64,000 nucleotides of DNA from Okamejei kenojei (lineage: Eukaryota), in the NCBI GenBank assembly GCA_035221665.1, contig CM069133.1:35464001-35528000 (forward strand), written 5' to 3'. Below, in pieces: positions 2,314 to 53,593 of the stretch. The position numbers and the translations under genes are program-made. Position 1 is the first letter of the stretch. Each line of letters starts with the position of its first letter. The notes under the pieces were generated by a model. It did no database searches, had not been told where the DNA came from, and saw nothing but the letters and a program-made list of their open reading frames with translations.

Positions 2314-2442
2314 CAGGTGTGACCTGCAGCCGGAGCTCACGCTGGGACAGATGGATAAATGGGCTGTGGGGGGGGGGGGGGGGGGGGTCATTGTGAAGGT
2401 AACGGTACTCATCCGGTTTGTTGATCACCACCGGACGCAGTA
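2314..2442 (-). pseudogene. 3' remnant of a V2-type Ig V-set exon (SIGLEC15-like cluster), truncated 5' near a CR1 insertion
   Basis: VVINKPDEYRYLHNDPPPPPPHSPFIHLSQRELRLQVTP then G|GTAAG donor (GT at 2313-2312). Homologous to the ends of the other V2 exons. Confidence 0.8.
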
Positions 2443-2477
2443 CGGTTGTCAGATGTTGTTGAGGAGTAGGCAGTAGA

Positions 2478-3056: not shown

Positions 3057-3457
3057 CGGCTGTGACCCGCAGGCGGAATTCACGCTGCGTCAGATGGATA
3101 AACCGCAGGTGTCCTATGGAGCTCTGGGTTGGGGGCCATACAGGGTGGAGGTAATCACGTTTCCTGATATACACCAGACACAAGTAGTCGTGACTGTCCT
3201 CCCCACTCAGCTGCTTTATCCTGGTTGAAGCGTTCCCTCCTCTGGGCCCCCGACCAGCTCGAACCGAGTTGCTGCGTTCTCTGCCGCCCAGGATCCATCA
3301 GCTTGTGGCCTGAACGCGACGATGTGCCCGTAGGGATCCTTCCTCATCCAAGTGACTTTGTGTATGGTGTGGTCGAGTGCAGGCGGTGGGAACACACAGG
3401 GTAACGTGGCCGAAGTCCCCTCAGTCCCAGTCACCACTGAGACATTCACGAGAGCAG
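3057..3457 (-). pseudogene. V2-type Ig V-set exon of SIGLEC15-like gene A, 1-bp frameshift
   Basis: Acceptor ttcactcag| at 3458 and donor G|GTAAGA. NVSVVTGTEGTSATLPCVF...VTWMRKDPY...RFELVG then (shift) NASTRIKQLSGEDSHDYLCLV...FRLRVTA. Length 401 nt is not a multiple of 3. Confidence 0.88.
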
Positions 3458-5074: not shown

Positions 5075-6928
5075 CAGTGTTAGTTTGTTAGTATCATTAT
5101 GAACATTTTAGTTAATTACTGTGTATTAGTATATATCATCAATATTAGTTCATTTCCCTTGAACTGGTTTAAATTTATTTAGTCAATTTTATATACACTC
5201 ACATTATCTCCTTCCCAGCTCCATGGGTTATTCATATTTGTAGCTTACATTAACAGATAATTAGTATTATTAAATTTGTTAGATTAATTGATTATTTATT
5301 ATTAACATGTAGTAATTGAAGATTTCCTTCAATCAACAACTTTATATACCAGTCCGTAATATCTAATTCCATTTCCCTCATTAATTCCCTCATTAATTAT
5401 GTATCTTCAACGTCCCCTTGGTTATCTTTAAGTTTTCCATTCAAGGTGAAACATGGACTGTATGCTCGAAAACACATTCCAGACAGATAAGCATATCTAG
5501 TAACTGTCTCGAAAAGTTCCGCCATCTTAATTAGAGCAAGATCTTGTATTAAAAAAGTTTAATCTTCATGCTTGTCTTCCTCTTCATCCTCTATTTCCTG
5601 TACGATATCTTGTGCGTAGTTAAAAGCCATTTCGGGGACCGCAAATGAGCGTTCGGTAACCTTATAAGTAATCTTCATTTTTGTAGGATAAACCACCCCA
5701 TATCTCACTTGGGATATTCCTTTCAAAATATTTCTTGTCTTTGTAAACAATATTCTTTTTTGGACGACTTCGCGAGGATAATCACGGAAAAGTCTAATAT
5801 TATCCCCAGAATATGTAAGATTCTCCCGTGAACAATCTTATTCAGTATATTTTCCAGTGAAGAAATGTCGAGGAATTTCACAATTATCTGTCTTGGGGGA
5901 GCATTTGTCCCTTTGGGAAAACGTCCAACCCGGTGAGCAACATCAATTCTTGGATTTTCCGGCAGTTAAACAACTTATTTAAGTAAGTCAGCAACGAAAG
6001 TAGGTGTATGAGATCTACGCCCCTCTCGTCCTTCCTTTACTCCTACAATTCTTAAATTCTGCCTTCTCGATCTCGCCTCCAAGTCCAAACACTTATCAGT
6101 CATTTTAACGAGTTGCTCCCCCTCAAATTTTTGTGCCTTTTTCAGATTCAATATTTCCAAAGACATCTCTTTCATTTCGCCCACCATGTCTTCCATCAGC
6201 TTATCAGACTTTTTCATGTTCTCATGCGTCTTGTCAAATTTCTTATTATAGTCTTTTTCCATTCGGGCACATTCTCCCGTAATTTTTTTATCAAGCTCCT
6301 TATACTGCTTGTTCAGCTCCTTTAACTCACCACAAGGAGTATCATTTTTATTATAAAGATTAAGCTCCATTTTCTCCAAAGACATATCTTTCATTTCGCC
6401 CACCATGTCTTCCATCAGCTTATCAGACTTTTTCATGTTCTCATGCGTCTTGTCAAATTTCTCATTATAGTCTTTTTCCATTCGGGCACATTCTCCCGTA
6501 AATTTTTTATCAAGCTCCTTATACTGCTTGTTCAGCTCCTTTAACTCACCACAAGGAGTATCATTTTTTATTATAAAGATTAAGCTCCATTTTCTCCAAT
6601 GTAGTATCATGTCCGCTAGCATTTGCTTCACCTCCTTCTCCTCTCCTTTTGTAGCCATTTCAGACACAAATCCTTGGGAGTAAGACTCTTCTTCAGAGCT
6701 TACTGCTGTCGTTTGCTGGAGTTCCCCAAACTTCCTGAAGCTTGATAGTAGCTTTCTTAGGTCCTTGTGATCGTTTCTCCTTGCTCATTTAAAACTCCCG
6801 TTAAACTCCAGTTCCGTTGAGTTTTGTTTTAAATCGGTCCTGTCTCTCAAAACAGCTTTTTCGCAATTTTAACGGGAGAGGAGCTCAATGCTACGACCTT
6901 ACAGCTTCATGGCCGCCCCCGGAAGTCC
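5075..6928 (-). mobile_element. L1-clade LINE 5' fragment: 5' UTR, disrupted ORF1 and inter-ORF spacer; no ORF2
   Basis: 5' end GGACTTCCGGGGGCGG. Coiled coil, then CLDLEARSRRQNLRIVGVKEG (L1 ORF1p RRM entry motif), then RYGVVYPTKMKITY (CTD). Confidence 0.88.
6156..6598 (-). repeat. Tandem duplication of about 219-220 bp (73 codons) in the L1 ORF1 coiled coil
   Basis: KNDTPCGELKELNKQYKELDKK...DMVGEMK occurs twice, nearly identical at DNA level. Confidence 0.95.
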
Positions 6929-8009: not shown

Positions 8010-8396
8010 CTCTCACAGTCAGACATGTTGCAACCACAGCGTGAAGTGTTCCAATATTGAGTTCCACACGGCATCGATAACTAGAATCATCGCCTTCCCA
8101 GCTCAGTCGCTCCATCATTATCGAGGCATCCCTCTGCCTGAGGTTCCCCACGAATCTCAACCAACCCCTTCCTCTCACCGGCCTCACTTCTTCGCCGCTG
8201 CAGCGGTCAGGACTTAGATATGTGCAGTTAAACACAAGGTGGTCTCCCTCTGATTTCCTCCTGTACCACAACACGGAGCCTGTTAGGATGTGATCAGTGG
8301 GTGGGTGGGTGAATGTACACGGCAACATCGCGGACGTTCCTTCCGCGGCAGACACCTCATCAGCACCGGATATTATCCAACTCTTGTACGAAAAAG
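8010..8396 (-). CDS. V1 exon of gene A: SIGLEC15-like N-terminal V-set domain, open frame, acceptor uncertain
   Basis: WIISGADEVSAAEGTSAMLPCTFTHP...VLWY...VFNC...C...LRFVGNLRQRDASIMMERL..DDSSYRCRVEL parallels human Siglec-15 (AVLPCTFTHP, VFRC...C, RFRLLGN, YFCRVEF). Donor G|GTGAG; 387 nt. The position matching the V1a acceptor reads AA, next to an N gap. Confidence 0.85.
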
Positions 8397-8398
8397 TT

Positions 8399-11238: not shown

Positions 11239-11425
11239 GGGTTGTATGCAAAATATAGCATTTTACTGTACCTAGGTCCATGTGACAATAAAGCATAATT
11301 GAATCATTGAATCGGCAGGAGTTAAACAACAAACAGCAGGAGCACCGATAGAGCAGGAACCAGAACAGTGGGAGAGATGATGAGACAACAAGGACGAGCT
11401 AATCGGGTCAACACAAAACACTCAC

Positions 11426-11486
11426 TGAAACCCTGGACTGAGACGGAGAGCAGGACGGTACAGAGACAAACCCAGAGAGAGCACAT
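11426..11486 (-). CDS. Signal-peptide (leader) exon of SIGLEC15-like gene A
   Basis: ATG at 11486 gives MCSLWVCLCTVLLSVSVQGF then A|GTGAGT: 61 nt, phase 1, hydrophobic. Three paralogous copies occur elsewhere in the window. Confidence 0.85.
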
Positions 11487-17340: not shown

Positions 17341-18222
17341 CTATAGTGATCCCAACACCGCGTGGCCAAAGCTTGTCATAGTGTGAACAGGTTTATTGTA
17401 GAACTTTGAAAAAGTTTCTTCTTTACTCCACCCTGCGATTTTTAAAATATGCTCGAGCAGTACGTCCCGCACCTTCGCCGCGGACGTAGCTGCAGCCCTG
17501 GTGGAGTGAGATTTGAACACATCAGTGTCTACTCCTGCTAACAGTAACACCTGTTTCAACCACTTTGAGATAGTTTGAACTGAAGCTTTAGTGTGTGGTT
17601 TTTTATGCGTAATCATTAACGTTATTTCATTTCCTCGAAGAGTTTTGGTAACTTTTATATATTGGTTCAAATGTCTAACCACACATAAAGTAGGATCAAT
17701 AGGATAAGCTTGAAAGATTACCTTTGCTCCAGTTCTTCCTGGTCTGCTTTGTTTGATCAGATCGTAAACATAGAACACAATGTTATCTGTAGTCACATGC
17801 ATACAGTCTAAACGCAACATTTGTAAAGTTTGCACTCTTTGAGCTGAAACCAATGACATTAACATTATTAATTTGAATGTTAATCTTTCCAATGACAATC
17901 CTTCAATTGGAGTCCACTGTCTCAGTAAGGTAAGTACAATGCTCACATCCCAAATCTCTGTGTATCTAGGTTTGGGTGGATTAATGTTAAAGATTCCTTT
18001 CATGAATCTAGATATTAGTGGATGTGATCCAATTGATTTCTGGTCAGACATAAGTCCTAAATAAGATGATAAGGCACTGCGTGCTGTGTTAATGGCACTG
18101 TAACTTAAATGTTGCTCAAAATGCAATTTAGCAAGGAACTCCAATACATTTGCAATATTCACAGTATCATAAGAAATATTTGACTGTGTGCAAAATTCTT
18201 CCCATTTCTTAATATGTGTCAT
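17341..18222 (-). CDS. DIRS-A tyrosine recombinase (N-terminus frameshifted, extends to about 18310)
   Basis: Catalytic signature SAQR...HSTR...GW...KFY; N-terminal SYSAINTARSALS. Confidence 0.92.
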   Translation of the reverse strand: MTHIKKWEEFCTQSNISYDTVNIANVLEFLAKLHFEQHLSYSAINTARSALSSYLGLMSDQKSIGSHPLISRFMKGIFNINPPKPRYTEIWDVSIVLTLLRQWTPIEGLSLERLTFKLIMLMSLVSAQRVQTLQMLRLDCMHVTTDNIVFYVYDLIKQSRPGRTGAKVIFQAYPIDPTLCVVRHLNQYIKVTKTLRGNEITLMITHKKPHTKASVQTISKWLKQVLLLAGVDTDVFKSHSTRAAATSAAKVRDVLLEHILKIAGWSKEETFSKFYNKPVHTMTSFGHAVLGSL

Positions 18223-18303
18223 ATATTGTTTTTGTGTGTATTCTCGCCATAACTGTAACTTCCATAGTTTTGTCCGACAATCCCAGCTCCTGTAGTGGTC
18301 TGG

Positions 18304-19032
18304 TCAAAACCTGCAGATTAATAAATTCATATATGCATATAATGGATAAATTTCTTTGGTTACTGGATTAATCAAAATATCACTACAGTTAGGAATTGAC
18401 ATATATGGTTCTTTAATCATATTCAGCATTAATGGGAACCAAGATTGTGTTGGCCAATTTGGAACTACCAACAATCCTGTGGCAGAATCTTGTTCTATTT
18501 CCTTCAGACATTGCTGAACCAAAGCAAAAGGTGGAAAAGCATAAAAGAACATATTCCCCCAGTTCAATGAAAAAGCATCTACTGCTACTGCATCTGGATC
18601 GTGTTCCCAAGACACATATTTAGGCAATTGATGATTAAGCCTTGATGCAAACAAATCAATTTCTGGTAAACCAAATTGAGTTACAATATTCTTAAATATT
18701 GCTGGATTAAGCATCCATTCTGTGTTATCTTTAAATATCCTTGATCTTTTATCTGCCACCACATTGTCTTTACCTGGAATGTAGTTTGCTGAAATCCAAA
18801 TTTGGCGATCAATACACCATTGCCATATTTCATTGACCAGACAATCACATGATACTGATCTGACTCCCCCCATGTGATTAATATATGCAACAGCCGTTTT
18901 ATTGTCTAACAGTATTAATACATGTAGACCCTTTTTTGAACAGCAATATGCTTTTAGACCATAGAAAGCACCCAATAACTCTAAATAGTTATACCATAAG
19001 TTTGAAGAAACGTTTCTTCTTGGACTTTCCAT
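18304..19032 (-). pseudogene. DIRS-A RNase H plus adenine-methyltransferase-like domain (frameshifted continuation of RT)
   Basis: NYLELLG, LDNKTAVAYINHMGG, YIPGKDNVVADKRSR (RNase H); IDLFASRLN and YAFPPF (MT-like). Confidence 0.9.
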
Positions 19033-20150
19033 CTACCTCCACAACTGGAGGATGAATCTGTTGCCCCCCATCCGAGAGCACTAGCATCTGTTTGTAAAAC
19101 CATTTCAGGCTGTTTAATCAGAATGTTTTTAGCAGCTTGTGGGACATTGTTAACCCACCATTGTAATTCCAACAAATCTCCTTTTGTTAATTGCATAGGC
19201 CCATCAAAGTGGCCTGCCCTCTCTTTGAAAGCTCTTATTTTGTCCCTTTGAAGATTTTGATAATGTAATGGACCAAATTCTACTGCAGGAAATGCTGCTA
19301 CTAGTTTACCAATAGTTTTCGCTACTTCTCGGATGGAAGGATAAGGTTTGTGAAAGAGATTATTACAAGTCACCAAAATATCATCAACTTTATCTGTTGG
19401 TAAAGTTATTAACATAGTCTCTGAGTTAATTACAAACCCCAAATAGTTAATTGATTGTGCTGGCTGCAGCTGGGATTTAATTGGATGAATCAAGAACCCT
19501 AGCTCTTCAAACAAAGCTTTTGTAACTGAAACTGAATTCTCAGCTGACTCTTGATTATCATTAATGATTTGAATGTCATCGAAATAAGCCATAACGATGT
19601 GTTTTTGTGCTCTTAATTGGGCTAAAACTGGTTTCAACAGTTTCGTAAAGAGCCTGGGAGCTGAACTCAATCCATTTGGCAAAGCTTTAAACTGCCATAA
19701 TTGTCCCAGCCAATTAAATTTTAAGTACCTCCGGAAGAACTGATGTATTGGTACAGAATAATAGGCGTCTTTCAAATCAATCTTAGCCATATAACAACCT
19801 GCTGATATTAAAAATCTTGCAGTATTAAATGTTTTCCATTTTAAAATGTTTGTATTCTACAACTTATTTAGATCTGTAAGGTCCAGAATAATTCTGCAAC
19901 CACCATCTTTTTATGTCTTTTGAAATATATTAGACACAATTGATGCTCGTGTTCATAAGTTTTTTCAATAACCCCTTTTTCAGATAATTTGTCAATTTCC
20001 ACATTAATCTCTGCTTTTCCAATTGTAGTAAACACGAAAGCATAGGCAGGTTTATTCTGTACTGGAGGATTAACCCCTTCTTTAAATGTAATAGTGGCTC
20101 CTGAAACTGTTTGTAAAATAAATCGATCAGAAGTAACGGTAAGCCAGTCT
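18981..20150 (-). pseudogene. DIRS-A reverse transcriptase (frameshifted 5' of 19790)
   Basis: IDLKDAYYSVPI, LPNGLSSAPRLFTK, YFDD, YLGF and LQTDASALGWG. Confidence 0.92.
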
Positions 20151-22667: not shown

Positions 22668-23053
22668 TTTTTTCGTACAATGGTTGGACAATATCCGATG
22701 CTGATGAGGTGTCTGCCGTGGAAGGGGCCTCCGCTGTGTTGCGTGTACATTCACCCACCCACCCACGGATCACATCCTCACCGGCTCCGTGCTGTGGCAC
22801 AAGATAAATTCCGGGGCTGAGAACGTTGTTTTTAACTGTACACATCCCGGCCCCGCACGCTCCCGGTGCGTTGAGGTGACACAGAAAGCCAGAGGGAGTC
22901 GATTCAGATTCGCAGGGAACCTCACACAGAGGGATGTCTCAATAATGGGAGAGCGACTATGCCGGGAGGACGATGGTGCTAGGTATCGGTGCCAAGTGGA
23001 CCTCAATATTGGACCATTTCACACTGTGGTTCCAACACGCCTGACTGTGAGAT
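22668..23053 (+). pseudogene. V1 exon of gene B (SIGLEC15-like V-set), frameshifted, acceptor AG reads AA
   Basis: WTISDADEVSAVEGASAVL (shift) CTFTHP...VLWHK...VFNCTHPG...RC...RFRFAGNLTQRDVSI...YRCQVDL...RLTVR|GTGAG. 386 nt, preceded by a (CT)n/poly-C tract. Confidence 0.88.
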
Positions 23054-25087: not shown

Positions 25088-26073
25088 TTAAATATTAGCT
25101 GCAGACTCTAAAATTCTGTCTGCAAATGTAGCAGGTTCCGCCAGCGGCTTATTATAAAACCTTTGGAAAGTTCTTTCCGAGGACCATCCTGCTCTGGCCA
25201 AAAATATGGTCCATAGGCACATCCATTCGCCTAGCCGCCGACGTAGATGCAGCCCTGGTGGAATGAGATTTGTAAACATTAGTATCGACTCCCGCGGACT
25301 TAAGCACCTGCTTGAGCCATCTTGAAATGGTTTGGCTCGTCACCTGACCATGAGGCTTCTTGTGGCTTATCCATAAGGCTTTTTCTCTCCCTCTTAAGTT
25401 ATATGTTGTGTCTATGTAATTGGCGAGATGGGTCTTGGCACACAACCGTGGGTCAGGTGAATATGCCCGGAACTCCATTACTGGAGGCGTGGTACCTGGT
25501 CTAGTTTGTTTGACCAGTCCCTGAATGTGAAATGTGATACAGTCCAATGACTCTGTCATGCTGTCCAGCCTCAGAAGGTGGAGGGACTGTACCCTTTGAG
25601 CTGACACTAGTGCCATGAGCATGACTGATTTCAGTGTAAGTTGTTCCAGCGTGAGTGACCTGGGTGGTGGCCATCTCCTAAGGTACGTCAGTACAATGCT
25701 GACATCCCAGATCTGAGTGTACCTAGGCCTAGGGGAATTGGTGTTAAAAATGCCCCTCATGATTTTGAGCACTAGTGGATGGGACCCCAAAGTCAGTTGT
25801 CCTGCTGCTGGAACCAAATAAGCTGACAACGCACTCCTGGCTGTATTAATGGCTGTAGCTGAGTCGTTCCCGATGTAATCCAACCAGAAACTCCACAACA
25901 CTGGTGGCTGTAGCTGTAGTGTAGGTAGTTCCTGTTTTGGAGCAATACCGTTCCCATTTTCTTATGTTGGTCAGGTATTGTCTCCTGGTGGACTCCCGGT
26001 GGGATGCGGTCATCATGTTGATGGCGTCCTCAGACAGTCCCAGGCCCAGAAGAGGTCTTTTTAGAATATGCAA
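25088..26073 (-). pseudogene. DIRS-B tyrosine recombinase (frameshifted)
   Basis: AINTARSALS, SAQR, HSTR, AGWSSERTFQRFY, spread over three ORF pieces. Confidence 0.92.
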
Positions 26074-27264
26074 GCCAGGAGATTGACTCTGTCATGGCAC
26101 GGGTGACTATTGCCTGACACTGGGTGGATTAATAACTCTCGACTGCTGGGGAATTCCAACGGTGTTTCAAACAGCCATGTCGAAGGCCACTGGGAACCAT
26201 GGCTGTGTAGGCCAGTCCGGTATTATCAAGATTTCTGAAGTGGAATCCAATTGAATCTTGCGTAATACCCGACTGATGAGGCAGAAGGGAGGAAAAGCAT
26301 AAATTTTCCCCCAATGCAGCGAGAATGCATCAACTGCTGCTGCCTCAAGGTCTGGTTCCCAAGCGACATACGTTGGTACCTGGTGATTCAGCCTGGATGC
26401 AAATAGATCGATATCTGGTGTGCCATATTGCTTTGTAATTTCAGCAAATATTTTGGGATTTAACATCCATTCGATATTATCATTGAATCTGCGTGACCTG
26501 GTGTCTGCCACTGTATTTTGCTTACCTGGTAGGTAAGTTGCTGATAACCAAATATGTCTTTCAACACACCATTGCCAGATTAGGTTGGCCAAATTGTCAC
26601 ACGATATCGACTTTACACCACCCATGTGGTTGATATAAGCCACCACCGTGGTATTATCTAATTGCAAACGGACATGTGCATGATGCGTATTAGATGAATA
26701 TGCTTTTAACCCATAAAACGCACCCAACATTTCTAAGTAGTTGATACCCCGTGTCTGTAGGCAAGATGATTCAAATTTAGTCCATCTGCCCCCTGTGCTG
26801 GATTGCATGTTAGTTGCTCCCCAGCCCAAAGCACTGGCATCCGTTTGAATGGTTAATACTGGGTTGGTGATTATTATGGGACTGGAGATGAGCCTTACTT
26901 TCCTTGCCCACCATTGTAACTCTGGAATGGATTCAGCAGTTAAACTCATAGCTCGGTCAAAGTGACCTGAGTTTTGCTTTAGTGCATGCACTTTTGCTCT
27001 TTGCAAATTTTGATAGTGCAAAGGCCCAAATTGTACAGCTGGAAAAGCTGCTACCATTTTGCCAATAACTCTGGCTACCTCCCGTATGGTTGGCTGATGT
27101 TTATTCATGAGTTCGTTGCATGATATTGCCAATTCTGATGCTTTCCCCTTCGGCAGAGTTACAATCATGCGAACAGTATCAATCGTAAATCCAAGATAGT
27201 CCATGGCAGTGGACGGTTGTAAAATTGGATTTATCTGGATGTATGACAAACCCCAAAGTTTCAA
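26060..27264 (-). pseudogene. DIRS-B RT C-terminus, RNase H and MT-like domain
   Basis: QTDASALGWG, NYLEMLG, LDNTTVVAYINHMGG, IDLFASRLN, YAFPPF. Confidence 0.92.
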
Positions 27265-27993
27265 ACAAACGTTTGGTGGCTGCTACTGCCAAAATGGCTG
27301 TCTCCAAGGTTTTCCCTACTATTAAAACGTCGTCTAAATAAGCCATGACTATATGCTTTTGTTCCCTCAATAATGCCAAGGCAGGTTTTAAGATTTTAGT
27401 GAACAGCCTTGGAGCGGAGGTTAGCCCATTTGGTAAGGCTTTAAATTGCCATAGCTGTTTCATCCAGATAAATTGTAAGTATTTACGATGCTCCTTGTGT
27501 ATGGGTACTGAGTAGTAGGCATCTTTTAAATCAATGCTTGCTAGAAAGTACCCTCTAGAAACCAACAGTCTGGCTGTTTCAAAAGTATCCATCTTGAAAT
27601 GTATATACCTGACAGACTTGTTTAAAGTAGTTAAGTCAATGATGATGCGACGTCCACCATCTTTTTTGATTTTAGTGAAAATATTGGACACAAATTCCAA
27701 AGGTTCATGTTTTGTTCTTTCAATGACACCTTTTGCTTGTAACCTCATCAGTTCAGCTTGACTCTCTTGTTTCTCTTTGACTGAGAGGGTGAATACCCTT
27801 TGGGGTATATGCTGAACTGGCGGAATGTTTTCATGAACAAAGTCAATTTTTGTAGCCATGAACGCTGCTGAGTATATACTTGTCTTTAGTGATGGATTCC
27901 CATGCATCCAAAAACAAGTGCAATCTCCACCCTGTTAGTATAGAGCCCCTACTGCACATATGCTGAGAGGGACCAGACCCACCTACCTCCATG
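27179..27993 (-). pseudogene. DIRS-B reverse transcriptase (frameshifted)
   Basis: KKDGGRRIIIDL, IDLKDAYYSVPI, LPNGLTSAPRLFTK, YLDD. Confidence 0.93.
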
Positions 27994-27994
27994 G

Positions 27995-29234
27995 TTATTG
28001 GTGCTTCTTCTGCCTCTTCGCTGGGCGGTGAGGCGTCTGCTGGGCTGTACAGGGTTGATGTTGATGTTGATGTTGTTGGGGGTGGCGCATTTTCCATGGG
28101 GTCCGCTCTGGGCCCTGGCCTAAAAAAGGCTTACGGGGAATGGTTGCGGACCCCGAGCTTTCACCAGTCCCATAGTGTGGTCGACGACTGGTGGACGCCA
28201 TGGGTACTGCCGCCTGGGTTTGTTAGGTCTGCTCGGTCCCAAACCTGCCCTCACGAGACCAAAGGTCTTGGATTCTTCCTCTAGGTCTTTCACCTTTTTT
28301 GGAAGGTGTTTCCCAAAGAGCAGAATAGGAGGTTCTGAACCCGGTGTTTTGCAAAGTCCCGCAAATTTAGGGTTGAGGGCAGGCTTGATGATTTCCTTCC
28401 GTAAATTGTTTATTTCATATTTAGTGGTGCACAGCAGAGCTAATGTGTCTTGCTGATTTGTGGAGATGTCCACACCATCAATGGACCGAGCATATGATGT
28501 TATTCCTGCAGTTAGTAATTTAAGGATTTTGTGGAGCTTCAACTCCAGGTTCCTGATGTTCTGCCCCAAATGTCCCCAAATCTGGCTGTTTACAGCTGGT
28601 ACATTCAATGATGTACAATTTACTGGGGCTGTATATTGTTCAAGAGCCTCATTGACCACCTGTTCTTGTAGGGGTTTTGAGGACAGGTGGTTAATGCTGG
28701 CTGAAAGTTTCCGGCTCTAACGGTCGACCCGCTTGTGGAATGGCCACGTAGCGGTTGACCACACCCAGCAGCTCTTCCTGATCCTGTACACCCTGCGTAC
28801 TCCCGACATATTCAGCCAGTGTCCCTTCTTCTTGACCAGCCCAGACCTGGTCGCCAATGCTGCCTTCAAAAGAAGGTGAAAGCAATGGCCAGTGCCGTAA
28901 AGGGCACTGCGGGAGTGCTTGAGCTCCCTTGGCGAGTCTGCTGCTGCTCTCTCAGCAGGTCTCGCTGGAGCAATTGCTCCATAAGCCGTTCCATGCGGCT
29001 TAGGCGGCTGCCTGTGTCGCTCTTGAACGGTGTGGCATGTTCATCCGAATCGTCGGACACTACCGCCCGGTTCTGGCTGCAGGTACCTCCAGACCGCTGC
29101 TCAGGCAGCACGAGCGGTGCTGGGCTCGGCTTGGTAGTTATACCCGCCGCCTCTTGCCCCCCCTCCAAAGAGCATTCCTCAACGGAGGACGAACGGGGGC
29201 GAGCTGCAGACTTCTTTCCTCTGGTCTTGCTCAT
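27995..29234 (-). pseudogene. DIRS-B gag-like ORF1 (frameshifted)
   Basis: ORF pieces 28866-29234, 28691-28885, 28120-28659 and 27995-28201. Motifs PVNCTSLNVPAVNSQIW, LRKEIIKPAL and LLFG. Confidence 0.8.
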
Positions 29235-29432
29235 TCTTTCTGAAAACAAGCCAACCACAGAGAAAAAGATACACGGCCACGGTAAAACTTACCTGTCGGC
29301 CCGACTTTTCAATGTGTAGCGGGAGCGCCTTGAACTCCCGTTGGTCGCGGGTGCACTGCATGAACGCTAATGTCGCGCATGCGTGCTGGACGGGGTCTTC
29401 ACGTAGTCACTCACGTGACTCCGAAGTAAAAT

Positions 29433-31736: not shown

Positions 31737-32110
31737 CTTCCGGCGGGAATGTCTCAGTGGTGACTGCGACTGAAGGGGTTTCGGCCATATTATCATGTGT
31801 GTTCCCACCGCTTCCGCTCACTCCGTCCCTCTCGCGGTCACATGGACGAGGAAGGATCCCTACCGATACATCGTCACGTTCAGGCCGCAAGCCGATGAAT
31901 CCTGGGCGGCGGAGAACGGAGCAACTCGGTTCGAGCTGATCCGCAACCCAGAGCGGGGAAACGCTTCAACCAGGATAAAGCAGCTAAGTGTGGAGAACAG
32001 TCACGACTACCCGTGTCTGGTGCAGAGCAGGAAACCGCATGCAAAATACCTTTATAATATACCTTTTATTCATCAGTACCAGCGTGAGCTCCTGCTGCGG
32101 GTCACACCCG
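31737..32110 (+). pseudogene. V2 exon of gene B, 1-bp frameshift
   Basis: Acceptor ttccctcag| and donor G|GTAAGA. NVSVVTATEGVSAILSCVF (shift) VTWTRKDPY...RFELI...NASTRIKQL...YPCLV...LLRVTP; 374 nt. Confidence 0.88.
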
Positions 32111-47635: not shown

Positions 47636-49141
47636 GGCCTAGAAAGCCTCACATTTTTCTATCACACCCCAAAGGCCATTGCGTTTATATTCCAGGCATA
47701 AAAACGCAATATTACATACCTGAGTTTGTCACGGTAGAAGATAACACACATCACTGAAAGGAAAAGGGTTTTCAATCCTAGAGGGATCTACAGGATCAGA
47801 ACCATGTAACTGTGTGATTGAGGAGAGAGTGAGAGAGGTCAGAGTGGTCACTGGGAAAGGGGAGCGATCGACAATGTACAAATGGTGTTTGCTTATCTAA
47901 GATCACCTCTCATTCTCCACACTCTGGAGAATATAGGTCTAATCTGCTCGAGGAAATAACAGACTGCTGACAGCGCTCAGGAAGTCAGGCAACTCTAGAA
48001 GGAAATCCAAATATGCCGTTTTGTCCAGTTTTGAGGCAAGGTCTCGATATGAATTGTCATTCGCCAATTTCCTTCCAGACATGCTACCTGGCCTATCGAG
48101 TTCCTCCAGTAGCTTTTTTCCTGCTCAATGTCCCTGTCTCCGGTCCACTCAATGTCCCCTCAATGATCTACTCAATGATCTTCAATCAACCTGCCCTTCC
48201 GGGAAACAGTGACGGAAACTTTACCGTACTCGCTCCCCACTAATCGTGGCTTTATTGTAGTTAAGAAGAGCAAAGTCCGACCAAGTACTGCTGGCGAGGT
48301 CTCACTAGATCCTTACATAACTGCGGTGAAATATCTCAAGCCTTGAATATAAATCCTCTCTGGATAAAACCTGAACAACTATTGCCTTTCTCGACCCTTC
48401 CACACCAGAACCACCCTTGATTGTCATGAGAACAAGCACACTCGGGTCCTTTTGAACATCCACAGCACCCAATCTCTCACAATTTAATAAACACTGTTTT
48501 TTATGTTCATTCAACCGTGTGGATAATTTGCCACATTTTATTCCACATTATGCTCCCACCCGCTTAATCAGCTTGTCCACCTTCCCCGAATCTCCGCGTC
48601 CTCCTGCCCTCTCACAGTCCCGCGGCATCACCATCATCGTCAGACCTGACAATTCCCCCCCCCCCCCCCCCCCCCTCCCCACCTTCAATCAACTCACTGA
48701 TGCAGATTATGAATAGCTGAGACCAAGAACCAATCTCTGAAGTACCTCGCCAGCCGCATACTCTCAACATGACAGAGATCCAGATATTTCATTATACATT
48801 CTGCTCGACAACTGCTTCACGATCCCCGGCAGTGCGTTGACTTAATGCCGCCTTTTCGCATCTGGTTCCCCAAACTCCTGGCTGGGACCCAACCTAGATC
48901 CTTCTGAGAATCCATACGTATCACAGCACCCTGTTTCCTCTTAGGCATTCAACTCCTCACCTCGCCAAAGGACTCCAATAGATTGATCAGCTATGGTTGA
49001 CTTTTCTCTGGAGTTGTATCTGACCCTCCTGATGCGAGGCTGCGCCCACTGAGTCCTGAGAGACAGGGTTTCCTGTGCCTGCTCTCCTCCCTCCCTCTGC
49101 ACCTCCGTTTTACACGGCAGAATGTGGCGATGGTTTCTTAC

Positions 49142-49573
49142 CTGGTGTGACCCGCAGCGGGTACTCACACTGGTACTGATGGGTGTACGGGGGGGGGGGG
49201 GGGGGGGGGGGGGGGGGTGTACGCTGTTCCTCAACTTTTCGTGGATGTACTTTCTCGGATCGTAGTTTTCCCGGTTTGCTGATCTCCACCAGACACAGGT
49301 AGCCGTGACTGTCCTCCACACTCAGCTGCCTTATCCTGGTTGAGGCGTTTCCAAGCTTTGGGTCCCCGACCAGCTCGAACCGAGTTGTTCCGTTCACCGC
49401 CGCCCAGGATCCATCAGCTTGGGGTCTGAACGTGACGATGTGTCGGTAGGGATCCTTCCTCATCCATGTGACCGTGAGGACGCTGCGGTGATACTGTGAT
49501 TGCCGATACACACATGGTAACGTGGCCGAAGCCCACTCAGTCCCAGTCACCACTGAGACATTCCAGTCGGGAT
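49142..49573 (-). CDS. V2 exon of gene C: Ig V-set domain, open frame with poly-Pro in the FG loop
   Basis: Acceptor tttcctcag| and donor G|GTAAGA; 432 nt, phase 1-1. SATLPCVY...VTWMRKDPY...RFELVGDPKLGNASTRIRQLSVEDSHGYLCLVE...PLRVTP. Confidence 0.85.
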
Positions 49574-50735: not shown

Positions 50736-51106
50736 CTTCCACAGTCAGCCGCGTTGGAATCACAAATTGAAAATACCCAACACTGAGTTCCAGGAAGCAC
50801 CGGTACTTATCACTGTCCTCCCGTCTCAGTGGCTCCACCATTATCGAGGCATCTCTCTCTCTGAGGTTCCCCACGAATTTGAACCGACCTCCTCCGGCCT
50901 TCTGTCACTTCATCGCATCGGGGGCGGCCGGGACCCGTATATGTGCACTTAAACACAAGGCTATGAGGCCTTGATGACACCTTGTGCCACAGCACGGAGC
51001 CGGTGAGGTTGTGATCAATGCCTGGGTGGGTGAATGTACACGGCAACACAGCGGAGGCCCCTTCCACGGCAGAACCTCATCAGCACTGGATATTGTCCAA
51101 TCATTG
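50736..51106 (-). pseudogene. V1b exon of gene C (SIGLEC15-like V-set), two frameshifts; 5' end in gap
   Basis: WTISSADEV (shift) EGASAVLPCTFTHP...VFKCTY...RCDEVT (shift) VGNLRERDASIMVE...YRCFLEL...RLTVE then G|GTGAG. Confidence 0.88.
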
Positions 51107-51289
51107 NNNNNNNNNNNNNNNNNNNNNNNNNNNNNNNNNNNNNNNNNNNNNNNNNNNNNNNNNNNNNNNNNNNNNNNNNNNNNNNNNNNNNNNNNNNNNN
51201 NNNNNNNNNNNNNNNNNNNNNNNNNNNNNNNNNNNNNNNNNNNNNNNNNNNNNNNNNNNNNNNNNNNNNNNNNNNNNNNNNNNNNNNNN
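51107..51289. other. Assembly gap
   Basis: N run. Confidence 0.99.
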
Positions 51290-51698
51290 ATTGGAACGAG
51301 TACAGGTGTGAGGTTCCAAATCCACACTGTCCCTGGGTGGTTGTCACAACCGATGTTTTCAGAATCACCAACACGGGGACTGGGATATAATCAACTGTTC
51401 GTGGATGTGTAATCACGCCTTTTCGGCGGGTCAGTTAGTTTTTATAATGTTGCTGATTTATTTACATTCCGGGGAGGAGAAATGTTTGGACATTTTGCAG
51501 GACCGAGGACGGAGATGGATTCTGGGGATTCTCTCACTGTCACATAATGGATTCACAGTGGCGACGGCCATTCGTTCCATCGGTTCTATGCTAACTCCAT
51601 GTTACATCAATCCAGCCAGTCGGACTTGTTCTCCATATTCTCAACAGACAGCCCTGCAACTTACTTTCACATACCGTCGGTTAAATTTGCCGGTCTCC

Positions 51699-51731
<33 letters not shown>

Positions 51732-51937
51732 ACCCCCCCCCCCCCCCCCCTCTCCCGCCGCCGGCACCGCGTCCCATTGGAACCGCTCCCTGTGAGGACT
51801 CACGTCCCCCAGCAACACACTGATTCCTTGGCCAATCACCTCGATGCTGTATCGTCATATCTTCTCTGTCCACCAATGGGAACAACCTCCCTGTACGCAA
51901 TGTTAAATCCCTCCATTAGATCTCCTCCCGACCTCAC

Positions 51938-52300
51938 CCACAGATTCAAATTTCCCAACACTGAACTCCAAGCGGCACCTACAGCTATCACTGTCCTCCC
52001 TTCTCAGTGGCTCCACCATTATCGAGGCAGCTCCTTCTCTGAGGTTCCCAACGAATTTGAACCGACCTCCTCCGGCCTTCTGTGTCACTTCATCGCATCG
52101 GGGGCGGCCGGGACCGGCATATGTGCAGTTAAACACAAGGCTGTGAGGCCTTGATGGCAACTTGTTGTACCGCAGCACGGAGCCGGTGAGGATGCGATCA
52201 GTGGGCAGGTGGGTGAATGTACACGGCAACACAGCGGGGGCTCCTTTCATGGCAGACTCCGCATCCGCACCGGATATTGTCCAACCATGGTACGCAACGT
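51938..52300 (-). pseudogene. V1a exon of gene C (SIGLEC15-like V-set): open frame, G-strand truncated, core W>R and Y>C
   Basis: Acceptor ctctttccag|. DVAYHGWTISGADAES...AVLPCTFTH...VLRYN...VFNCTY...RFKFVGNL...SCRCRLEFSVGKFESV then G|GTGAGG; 363 nt. Confidence 0.85.
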
Positions 52301-52356
52301 CTGGAAAGAGAGAGAAAGAGAGAGGGTGAGAGAGAGAGTTGAGAGAGAGAGAGAGT

Positions 52357-52627: not shown

Positions 52628-53532
52628 GGGAGAGGTAAATATTGGAACAAGTATAGGTGTGGATTTCCAAATCCACACTGTCCCCGGGGTGTTGTCACAA
52701 GCGATGCCCTCAGATGTCTGTGGGATAGACACATCAACAGGGGAACTGGGTTACAGGCTGGGATATAATCAACTGTTCATGGGTGTGTGATTCTCGTCTG
52801 TTCCCCGGGTCAGTTGGTTTTTATAATGTTGCTGATTTACTTTCTGGGGAGGGGAAATGTTTGGACATTTTGCAGGACAGGAGACGGAGATGGATTATTG
52901 GGATTCCCTCACTGTCACATAATAGATGCACAGTGGAGACGGCCGTTCAGCCCATCGGTTCGATTATGGCTCCCTGCGATGACTCGTGTCTCCCAGAAAC
53001 AAACGTGTTTCTTTGGCCAATCACCCCCATTCTCTATCGTCATCTCTTTTCTGTCCACCAACGAGAACAACCTCCCTGTAAACAATGTTAAATCCCTCCA
53101 TTAGATCTTCTCCCAACAGTGTTACGAGCTGGAAACCAGTCGGTCCTTCCAGCTCGCACCACCGACGATAACATCGCGGCTGCTCTGCTGTTAATTCTCT
53201 CTCCATATCCCCGCCTGCTTTCTGTCACCTTGCCCCCTCTTGCTTATCGAGAGTCTCACTGTTTTATGAATGGTGGTCTCCATATGCATATTCTTCCATC
53301 TCAGCCGTCCCCAGATAACCTTCACCAAGGGCTCGCTTGGTCAAGAGGGCGCCTCGCCACCAACTTCTGAAGGACACAGATATGGACAATATCGCCACAT
53401 TCTCCACACGTCCCACCCCTTTGAGCCAAAGTACGAACAGCTGGAGTGCGGAGAGAATGGGAAACGGAACATTGGTTGAGATGACGAGACCAAGGGGAGA
53501 TAACAAAGAGGGTCAACAAAAAAAACTCCTAC

Positions 53533-53593
53533 TGTGACCGTGGACGGAGACGGAGAGCAGGATGGTGCAGAGACAAACCCAGAGAGATCACAT
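53533..53593 (-). pseudogene. Leader exon of gene C with a nonsense second codon
   Basis: ATG TGA TCT CTC TGG GTT TGT CTC...CAC A|GTAGG; 61 nt, matching the gene A leader. Confidence 0.85.

Follow-up and report, generated by a model that had tools for sequence, protein, structure and literature searches.

Organization of the 49142 gene

The window, the whole stretch of 64,000 nucleotides analysed here, is part of contig C3 in the 2.76-Gb genome of Okamejei kenojei and carries genes and gene fragments of an Ig-like receptor family, the annotated relatives of which are laid out as leader, V1, V2, TM and tail. The V2 exon at 49142..49573 on the minus strand belongs to an activating-type pseudogene, hereafter the 49142 gene. 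It encodes a V-set Ig domain (Pfam V-set, E 1.8e-10), consists of 432 nt that are open from end to end, has AG/GT ends and is 88-90% identical to the paralogs L008-L011. The leader exon (53531..53593, minus strand) has a TGA at codon 2. Two tandem V1 exons at 50737-52301 are both broken: exon a (51939..52301, minus strand) has its core Trp changed to Arg and has lost the G strand together with the splice donor, and exon b (50737..51105, minus strand) has deletions of one and two nucleotides plus a stop in the shifted part. The TM exon (47722..47814, minus strand), of the activating type with a Lys, is disabled by a change of its acceptor from AG to AA, a 2-nt deletion and a TGG-to-TAG change at 47788-47790. 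Because of the leader stop, the two broken V1 exons and the damaged TM exon, the 49142 gene cannot make a receptor.

The FG segment of this V2 (49188..49292, minus strand) comprises 35 codons, equal to the 27 ancestral codons plus 24 nt as judged by alignment to L008-L010, its position being taken from the P0008 model. One G is added at 49270..49272 (GG to GGG, minus strand), which, by alignment of the paralogs, moves some 17 codons of the loop out of their ancestral frame; the extra base is kept in the contigs X2 and X3. At 49189..49217 (minus strand) a run of 29 C stands in place of CCCGCC inside the conserved His-Pro-Pro codons, restoring the frame with a net gain of 24 nt, and the X3 contig spans this tract with an 18-letter gap. 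The motif NYDPRKYIH, which the earlier note had read in a shifted frame of this copy, is found as described, but that frame is the ancestral frame of the 27-aa loop, because it aligns with NYDPIKYID of P0007 and with L008-L010. With the 49142 V2 as query, 14 shorter relatives were retrieved, and the shifted loop was present in none of the 12 new ones.

The comparison with other contigs, which are assembled contigs and not raw reads, covered the TM-to-V2 part of the gene. X3 comes from another sample and study, whereas X1 and X2 are possibly from the assembly's own sample. In the TM exon, X1 and X2 are identical to the assembly, and X3 has the same 2-nt deletion and no change listed at the stop, with one of its 13 differences undisplayed. 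Over window 47650-48597, X3 represents a divergent haplotype with 13 substitutions and 33 gap letters in about 950 nt. The X20 pieces over V2 look like paralogs.

Other V2 copies in the window

The four sequences reported in the earlier note as V2 exons are all V2-derived, but none of them is intact: besides the 49142 exon with its added G and its tract, the copies at 3057 and 31737 have 1-nt deletions, and that at 2314 is a remnant. The V2 exon at 3057..3457 (minus strand) has lost one nucleotide near 3243, upstream of the loop, compared to its intact sister L002 (92% identical). The same gene has an open-frame V1 exon at 8011..8397 (minus strand) and a leader at 11424-11486; no TM exon was detected for it. 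The sequence at 2314..2445 (minus strand) is the 3' remnant of a V2 with a tract of 20 C, from which the 5' two-thirds are missing and which has CGT (Arg) at the expected Cys codon. Its place corresponds to the intron between V2 and TM in L002, the intact sister gene, where the same remnant is present with 26 C; a further one, with 25 C, is found in L012. On the plus strand, the V2 exon at 31737..32110, which has lost one nucleotide in its BC region, upstream of the loop, belongs to a short-loop lineage together with L007 and Leucoraja P0026, and exon reading placed a frameshifted V1 exon upstream of it at 22670..23052 (plus strand).

Elsewhere on contig C3, L004 (C3:35369817-35370095) is a V2 exon truncated within the FG loop; it lies in inverted orientation in the region of the first intron of L003. 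The window also contains two decayed copies, at 17341-19856 and 25152-29319, with ORFs that combine reverse-transcriptase-like and tyrosine-recombinase-like motifs, a pairing that we take to be DIRS-type retrotransposon-like. Another ORF of 269 aa, at 5975-6784, is LINE ORF1-like by eye and has an internal tandem duplication.

An elasmobranch family of paired Ig-like receptors

All 73 homologs from the V2 search are from sharks or rays, as are the best 120 of 141 matches of the profile search. The four annotated proteins closest to the V2 exons come from the skates Amblyraja and Leucoraja, with identities of 70-76%, and the annotated names among the matches listed are "uncharacterized", "Siglec-15-like", "pIgR-like" and similar. 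With the ITIM consensus applied to the tails, ITIM-like motifs were found in 24 of the 73 homologs and a Lys-bearing TM motif in 25, whereas both occur together in 0/73. The genome of Okamejei kenojei encodes activating (Lys-TM) and ITIM-like types alike, and contig C3 holds 11 near-full V2 copies, with lesions in most genes. Altogether, the V1-V2 proteins form an elasmobranch family of paired Ig-like receptors that is clustered and includes pseudogenes. The receptors would signal through their TM and tail types, the TM Lys being read as an adaptor contact after Siglec-15, as described in PMC10264397.

The best solved relative of the full protein is human Siglec-15 (PDB 7zoz, E 4.7e-8), with the match lying over V1. 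An Arg directly follows the F-strand Cys in 42 of 51 V1 domains and is also seen in the alignment to 7zoz; moreover, V1 has an apparent extra Cys pair in the C'-C'' region (C50 and C60) that is nearly invariant in alignment A1. This conserved Arg and the likeness to Siglec-15 suggest that V1 may bind sialic acid. The V2 domain, which lacks the Arg that V1 carries after the F-strand Cys, is a Pfam V-set domain with CD276 and pIgR, not Ig or TCR, as its best solved relatives. Its G strand reads QxExxLxV, without a J-type FGxG/WGxG, and is encoded in the same exon as the rest of the V domain. In the model of the relative P0008 (mean pLDDT 86.6), residues 220-242 lie between strands F and G, which is the CDR3 position. 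According to the model and a fold search, V1 and V2 are tandem V domains, and their architecture includes no C1 domain. A J-like FGxGxGT motif, which batoid V1 domains do not have, is present in the G strand of some shark V1 domains (among them P0004, P0006 and P0049) and may be relevant to the origins of VJ-type domains.

A second, related multi-V family is represented by L069 (G000:C3:35821674-35826187) and L026-L030 (C3:44.69-44.87 Mb), in which a divergent V1 of the Siglec-15-like kind is combined with several domains resembling V2; P0106 and P0115, its annotated relatives, each have four V domains and a C-terminal Ig domain, and the tail of P0115 has Tyr motifs. Contig C30 carries the V exons L032, L033 and L037, two of them near-identical, which we take, by eye and from their motif, to be butyrophilin/B7-like. 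An IgNAR-like gene was considered as an identity and rejected. We found no paper describing the V1-V2 family or its loop; most subscription journals lay outside the search, and a prior description is possible.

The FG loop of V2 is hypervariable in batoids

The earlier note had counted 16 (31737), 25 (3057), 25 (2314) and 35 (49142) residues from the F-strand Cys to the (F/Y)(I/T)H motif, and these counts were reproduced. Across the family, the segment from the F-strand Cys to QxE spans 9-32 aa in batoid V2, with 12 lengths among 44 distinct domains, whereas it is 14 aa in 27 of 31 shark domains, a count that includes domain 1 of P0010, whose "length 5" is a parsing error and was counted as non-14. 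This survey left out five N-terminally cut domains and two with no parsable loop. Among parsable proteins only, further shark domains have 13-18 aa and four Narcine domains 15, 27, 28 and 28. By contrast, the Trp-to-Cys distance of V2 is constant in 31/31 batoid and 27/27 shark domains, and the FG segment of V1 is 14 aa in 51/51 domains.

Per alignment column, the batoid domains have an entropy of 2.14 bits for FG, compared to 1.26 for BC and 0.61 for the framework. Since the entropy is far higher in FG than in the framework, uniform variability across the domain is ruled out; the variability also reaches beyond FG, because the BC loop is variable too. The loop core is rich in Tyr, Asp, Lys and Arg, and Pro-Pro-aromatic-x-His is conserved at the loop base. 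In shark V2, the loop tip varies at near-fixed length. Several length classes are common to Okamejei kenojei and other skates (L003 with P0036, L007 with P0026, and L008-L010 with P0007 and P0012) and therefore represent old paralog lineages, not fast switches; the tree is a quick tree only, in which 48 of 82 inner branches are open. For 7 paralogous V2 exons, the surrounding 800 nt contained no RSS-like element, and a scan of the window gave 4 weak matches, none near a V2 exon, in line with the earlier reading that an RSS is absent. The proposal of germline diversification focused on the CDR3-equivalent loop also holds, and it extends batoid-wide, with fixed-length controls and an excess of amino-acid change.

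Amino-acid replacement in the FG loop

The substitution test used five close, alignable paralogs, two of them broken and another, L009, belonging to a gene whose V1 has a stop. Nonsynonymous changes per site amount to 0.44 in FG versus 0.17 in the framework (Fisher p 1e-4; 0.002 without L011). Counted as changes, 24 are nonsynonymous and 1 is synonymous in FG; for the framework, the numbers are 35 and 12, respectively (Fisher p 0.026, or 0.19 when L011 is left out). A codon model for FG gave an LRT p of 0.005 with L011 and, without it, an omega of 6.5 with an LRT p of 0.019. The MG+F3X4 model gave a 2dL of 2.5, which is not significant, and a count-based binomial test for omega above 1 gave p values of 0.05-0.23. 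Thus, when dN/dS is compared along the domain in these five paralogs, as the earlier note had proposed, the replacement excess in FG stands, whereas an omega above 1 depends on the model. The framework omega is about 1.3, not below 1, and therefore relaxed constraint or gene conversion may contribute. Diversifying selection on the FG loop, with an omega of about 6, is likely, though model-dependent and not established. The L011 gene (C3:34.71-34.72 Mb) has many single-base indels in V1, V2 and TM, which point either to decay of the copy or to poor polishing of the assembly there.

Poly-C tracts are confined to dead sequence

The two poly-C tracts described earlier in the window, seen as G-runs on the forward strand, have the lengths and places given for them (20 nt at 2368-2387 and 29 nt at 49189-49217). 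Such tracts occur in one of the 11 near-full V2 copies, that of the 49142 gene, and in all three intronic remnants; they are absent from the 5 unshifted open-frame copies of V2 and from all 107 annotated V2 domains. This region (C3:35.36-35.62 Mb) is rich in long G/C runs, of which 34 of at least 15 nt were counted in 257,128 bases, compared to no A/T run; six other stretches gave 12 long G/C versus 1 long A/T run in 149,500 bases. Even at this density, about 360 nt of loop would be predicted to hold 0.04 tracts, whereas two are present (P about 0.0008), which means that the position calls for an explanation. It is accounted for by the His-Pro-Pro codons (CAC CCG CCG) at the loop end, which are kept in most batoid members and act as a C-rich seed. 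Just after V2, an intronic C-run also differs among paralogs, with 10, 15 and 19 nt in L008, L010 and L011, respectively.

The listed X1 and X2 contigs stop short of the 49142 tract, and X2 keeps the extra G. Over 48885-49300, the X3 contig differs by three substitutions and 18 un-itemised gap letters, with the added G kept. The gap seems to point to a tract of about 11 C, in frame (+6) if it lies wholly in the run, a length that comes from a single contig and from a comparison method that calls most gaps at repeats false. The tract is thus probably real and variable in length, whereas the exact length of 29 is uncertain.

The suggestion that the tract sets or compensates the frame applies to the 49142 exon, where the C-run restores the frame at net +24, but among the remnant tracts only one of three is in frame and two are not. 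The chance that both versions of the 49142 loop (+24 and +6) would be in frame is about 1/9; three of all five tract-bearing sequences are in frame, for which a hand calculation gives about 0.2 by chance. Slippage was likewise well founded as far as tract length is concerned, since paralogs differ and X3 is apparently 18 nt shorter, but it is seen only in DNA unable to make a receptor. The location of the tracts in dead copies, the mixed frames of the remnants and the variable intronic C-run together make a pattern of neutral slippage, and the one point that counts against it is the in-frame state of both versions of the 49142 loop.

Comparison with known receptor systems

Paired receptor families include the CD33-related Siglecs, KIR, LILR, SIRP, CD300, the teleost NITR and the CEACAM family of Xenopus (PMC5112662). 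The V1-V2 family shares with these clustered paralogs, near-identical ectodomains with opposite signalling modules, many pseudogenes and fast-evolving binding loops. It differs in that the main variation, of 9-32 aa, lies at the CDR3 position of the membrane-proximal domain and is restricted to batoids. The MDIRs of clearnose skate likewise form a multigene family with both activating and inhibitory V-domain receptors, but PMC3031540 describes them as CD300/TREM/pIgR-like; the two families are set apart by this description, and no MDIR-named protein is among the matches listed.

Compared to Siglec-15, with the features of the latter taken from PMC10264397, the V1-V2 receptors are alike in the V1 match, the Arg after the F-strand Cys, the putative C'-C'' Cys pair and the positive TM of the activating forms. 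However, the second domain of Siglec-15 is C2-set, whereas here it is a V-set domain without the Arg and with a variable loop. The V1-V2 family, unlike Siglec-15, is multigenic and has ITIM-like counterparts, and its sialic-acid binding is a prediction. The elasmobranch UrIg/UrIg2 and NCR3, described as non-rearranging VJ in PMC12227049, similarly have the whole V domain including the G strand in one germline exon with no RSS. UrIg differs by having VJ and C1 domains (PMC12227049), compared to two V domains and no C1 in the V1-V2 family. The word Siglec does not occur in PMC12227049.

The top match of the fold search was JAML (PDB 3mj6/3mj7, E 8e-16), which also has two tandem V-set domains; with 15-16% identity and a TM-score of 0.35, the likeness is in architecture only. 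In contrast to Ig and TCR V genes, V2 has no RSS, has its G strand in the same exon, lacks a J motif and is closest to CD276 and pIgR. Homopolymer phase-variation (contingency) loci have their runs in otherwise intact genes. The 49142 exon resembles them in that its coding sequence contains a long C/G run, the length of which may vary, but its gene is disabled in several other exons (leader, V1 and TM).

Proposed evolution of the family and of its tracts

The account that we favour, and hold to be quite probable as a whole, joins germline paired receptors and a batoid-specific diversification of the FG loop with poly-C tracts as a product of decay. A cluster of germline-encoded paired receptors, with either a Lys-TM or a TM followed by an ITIM-like tail, would evolve by birth and death. 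In batoids, the FG segment of V2 would have grown beyond the 14 aa or so of the shark state and would have come to differ between paralogs through in-frame indels and fast amino-acid replacement, the indels coming from ordinary slippage followed by filtering for frame. The V2 loop is most likely a ligand-contact surface under pathogen pressure, exerted by microbes that would bind the inhibitory forms or mimic their ligands, and V1 would read sialic acid through the conserved Arg. In live copies, the seed CAC CCG CCG would be held in check by its two G interruptions; after a copy dies or turns intronic, a G would be lost and the run would grow by slippage, like the G/C runs region-wide.

Other origins of the tract-bearing loop have to be weighed against this account. 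It is quite unlikely that the frameshift was compensated in a live gene, i.e. that the added G rewrote about 17 codons, the C-run restored the frame and the gene died later. The assembly exon, open from end to end at net +24, fits such a history, as does the X3 contig, which keeps the added G, is 18 nt shorter and is in frame if its gap lies wholly in the run. However, a shifted-frame or poly-Pro loop is present in none of 107 annotated V2 domains, two of the three remnant tracts are out of frame, and the X3 gap is un-itemised, gaps at repeats being mostly false. Moreover, exon b of V1 in the same gene is also net in-frame (-1 and -2) and yet contains a stop; therefore, chance compensation happens. 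We give hardly any credence to the slippage switch raised in the earlier note, in which tract length would turn a receptor on and off, or set its loop length, between alleles or cells. The tract does seem real and variable in length, and tracts are over-represented in the loop, but in the host gene the leader carries a stop, both V1 exons are broken and the TM exon is damaged in three ways, and the TM damage is also present in other runs. The other tracts are intronic, and none is found in an open-frame gene or copy or in an annotated relative. The switch is thus largely refuted for these copies, and the poly-C tracts do not switch a working receptor. There is a slim chance that tracts and frameshifts alike are assembly errors, as long homopolymers are error-prone, X1 and X2 stop short of the tract and L011 has many single-base indels; against this, independent contigs show the added G and the TM lesions as well, both stops are substitutions, and the seed explains the site. 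The exact length of 29 may still be wrong, but a pure assembly artefact, which the earlier note had named as a possible refutation, is improbable, with X2 and X3 keeping the added G and X3 spanning the tract.

As for the loop itself, its length and sequence might have drifted because constraint was relaxed, without being selected for new binding. The framework omega of about 1.3, the many pseudogenes, the tiny synonymous counts in FG (1-2) and the model-dependent significance are compatible with such a tolerant loop. We nevertheless regard it as unlikely, as FG exceeds the framework 2.3- to 2.6-fold in amino-acid change per site without a rise in synonymous change, the shark loop keeps a near-fixed length while its tip varies, and the Pro-Pro-aromatic-x-His at the loop base is conserved. 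Germline-joined V-D-J occurs in some shark Ig genes, and the CDR3 position, the length spread and the Tyr/Asp/Lys/Arg-rich core could recall a fossil RAG joint of that kind. This origin is very improbable, given that there is no RSS near V2, that the relatives of V2 are CD276 and pIgR, and that neither a J motif nor a C1 domain is found.

A bolder version would see a batoid germline "repertoire" of antibody-like CDR3 loops, with new loops made wholesale by paired frameshifts. Taken together, the two halves are a poor prospect; the repertoire half alone is likelier than the frameshift half, at somewhat less than an even chance. If this version were true, the 49142 copy would be a snapshot in which the loop was rewritten by the added G and regained its frame through slippage at His-Pro-Pro before the gene was lost, the frame being held in both sampled alleles, and V1 would read sialic acid while V2 reads a variable ligand.

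On the favoured account of paired receptors with decaying tracts, the striking poly-C tracts of this genome call for caution, as they mark dead sequence. The catalogue of innate receptors of cartilaginous fish is still poor, and an elasmobranch-wide, Siglec-15-like paired family is automatically mis-named in annotation. The short loop of sharks and the long loop of batoids, with V1 as an internal control, provide a clean comparison, which lets one ask how a non-rearranging V domain gains a CDR3-like surface, and under what driver.
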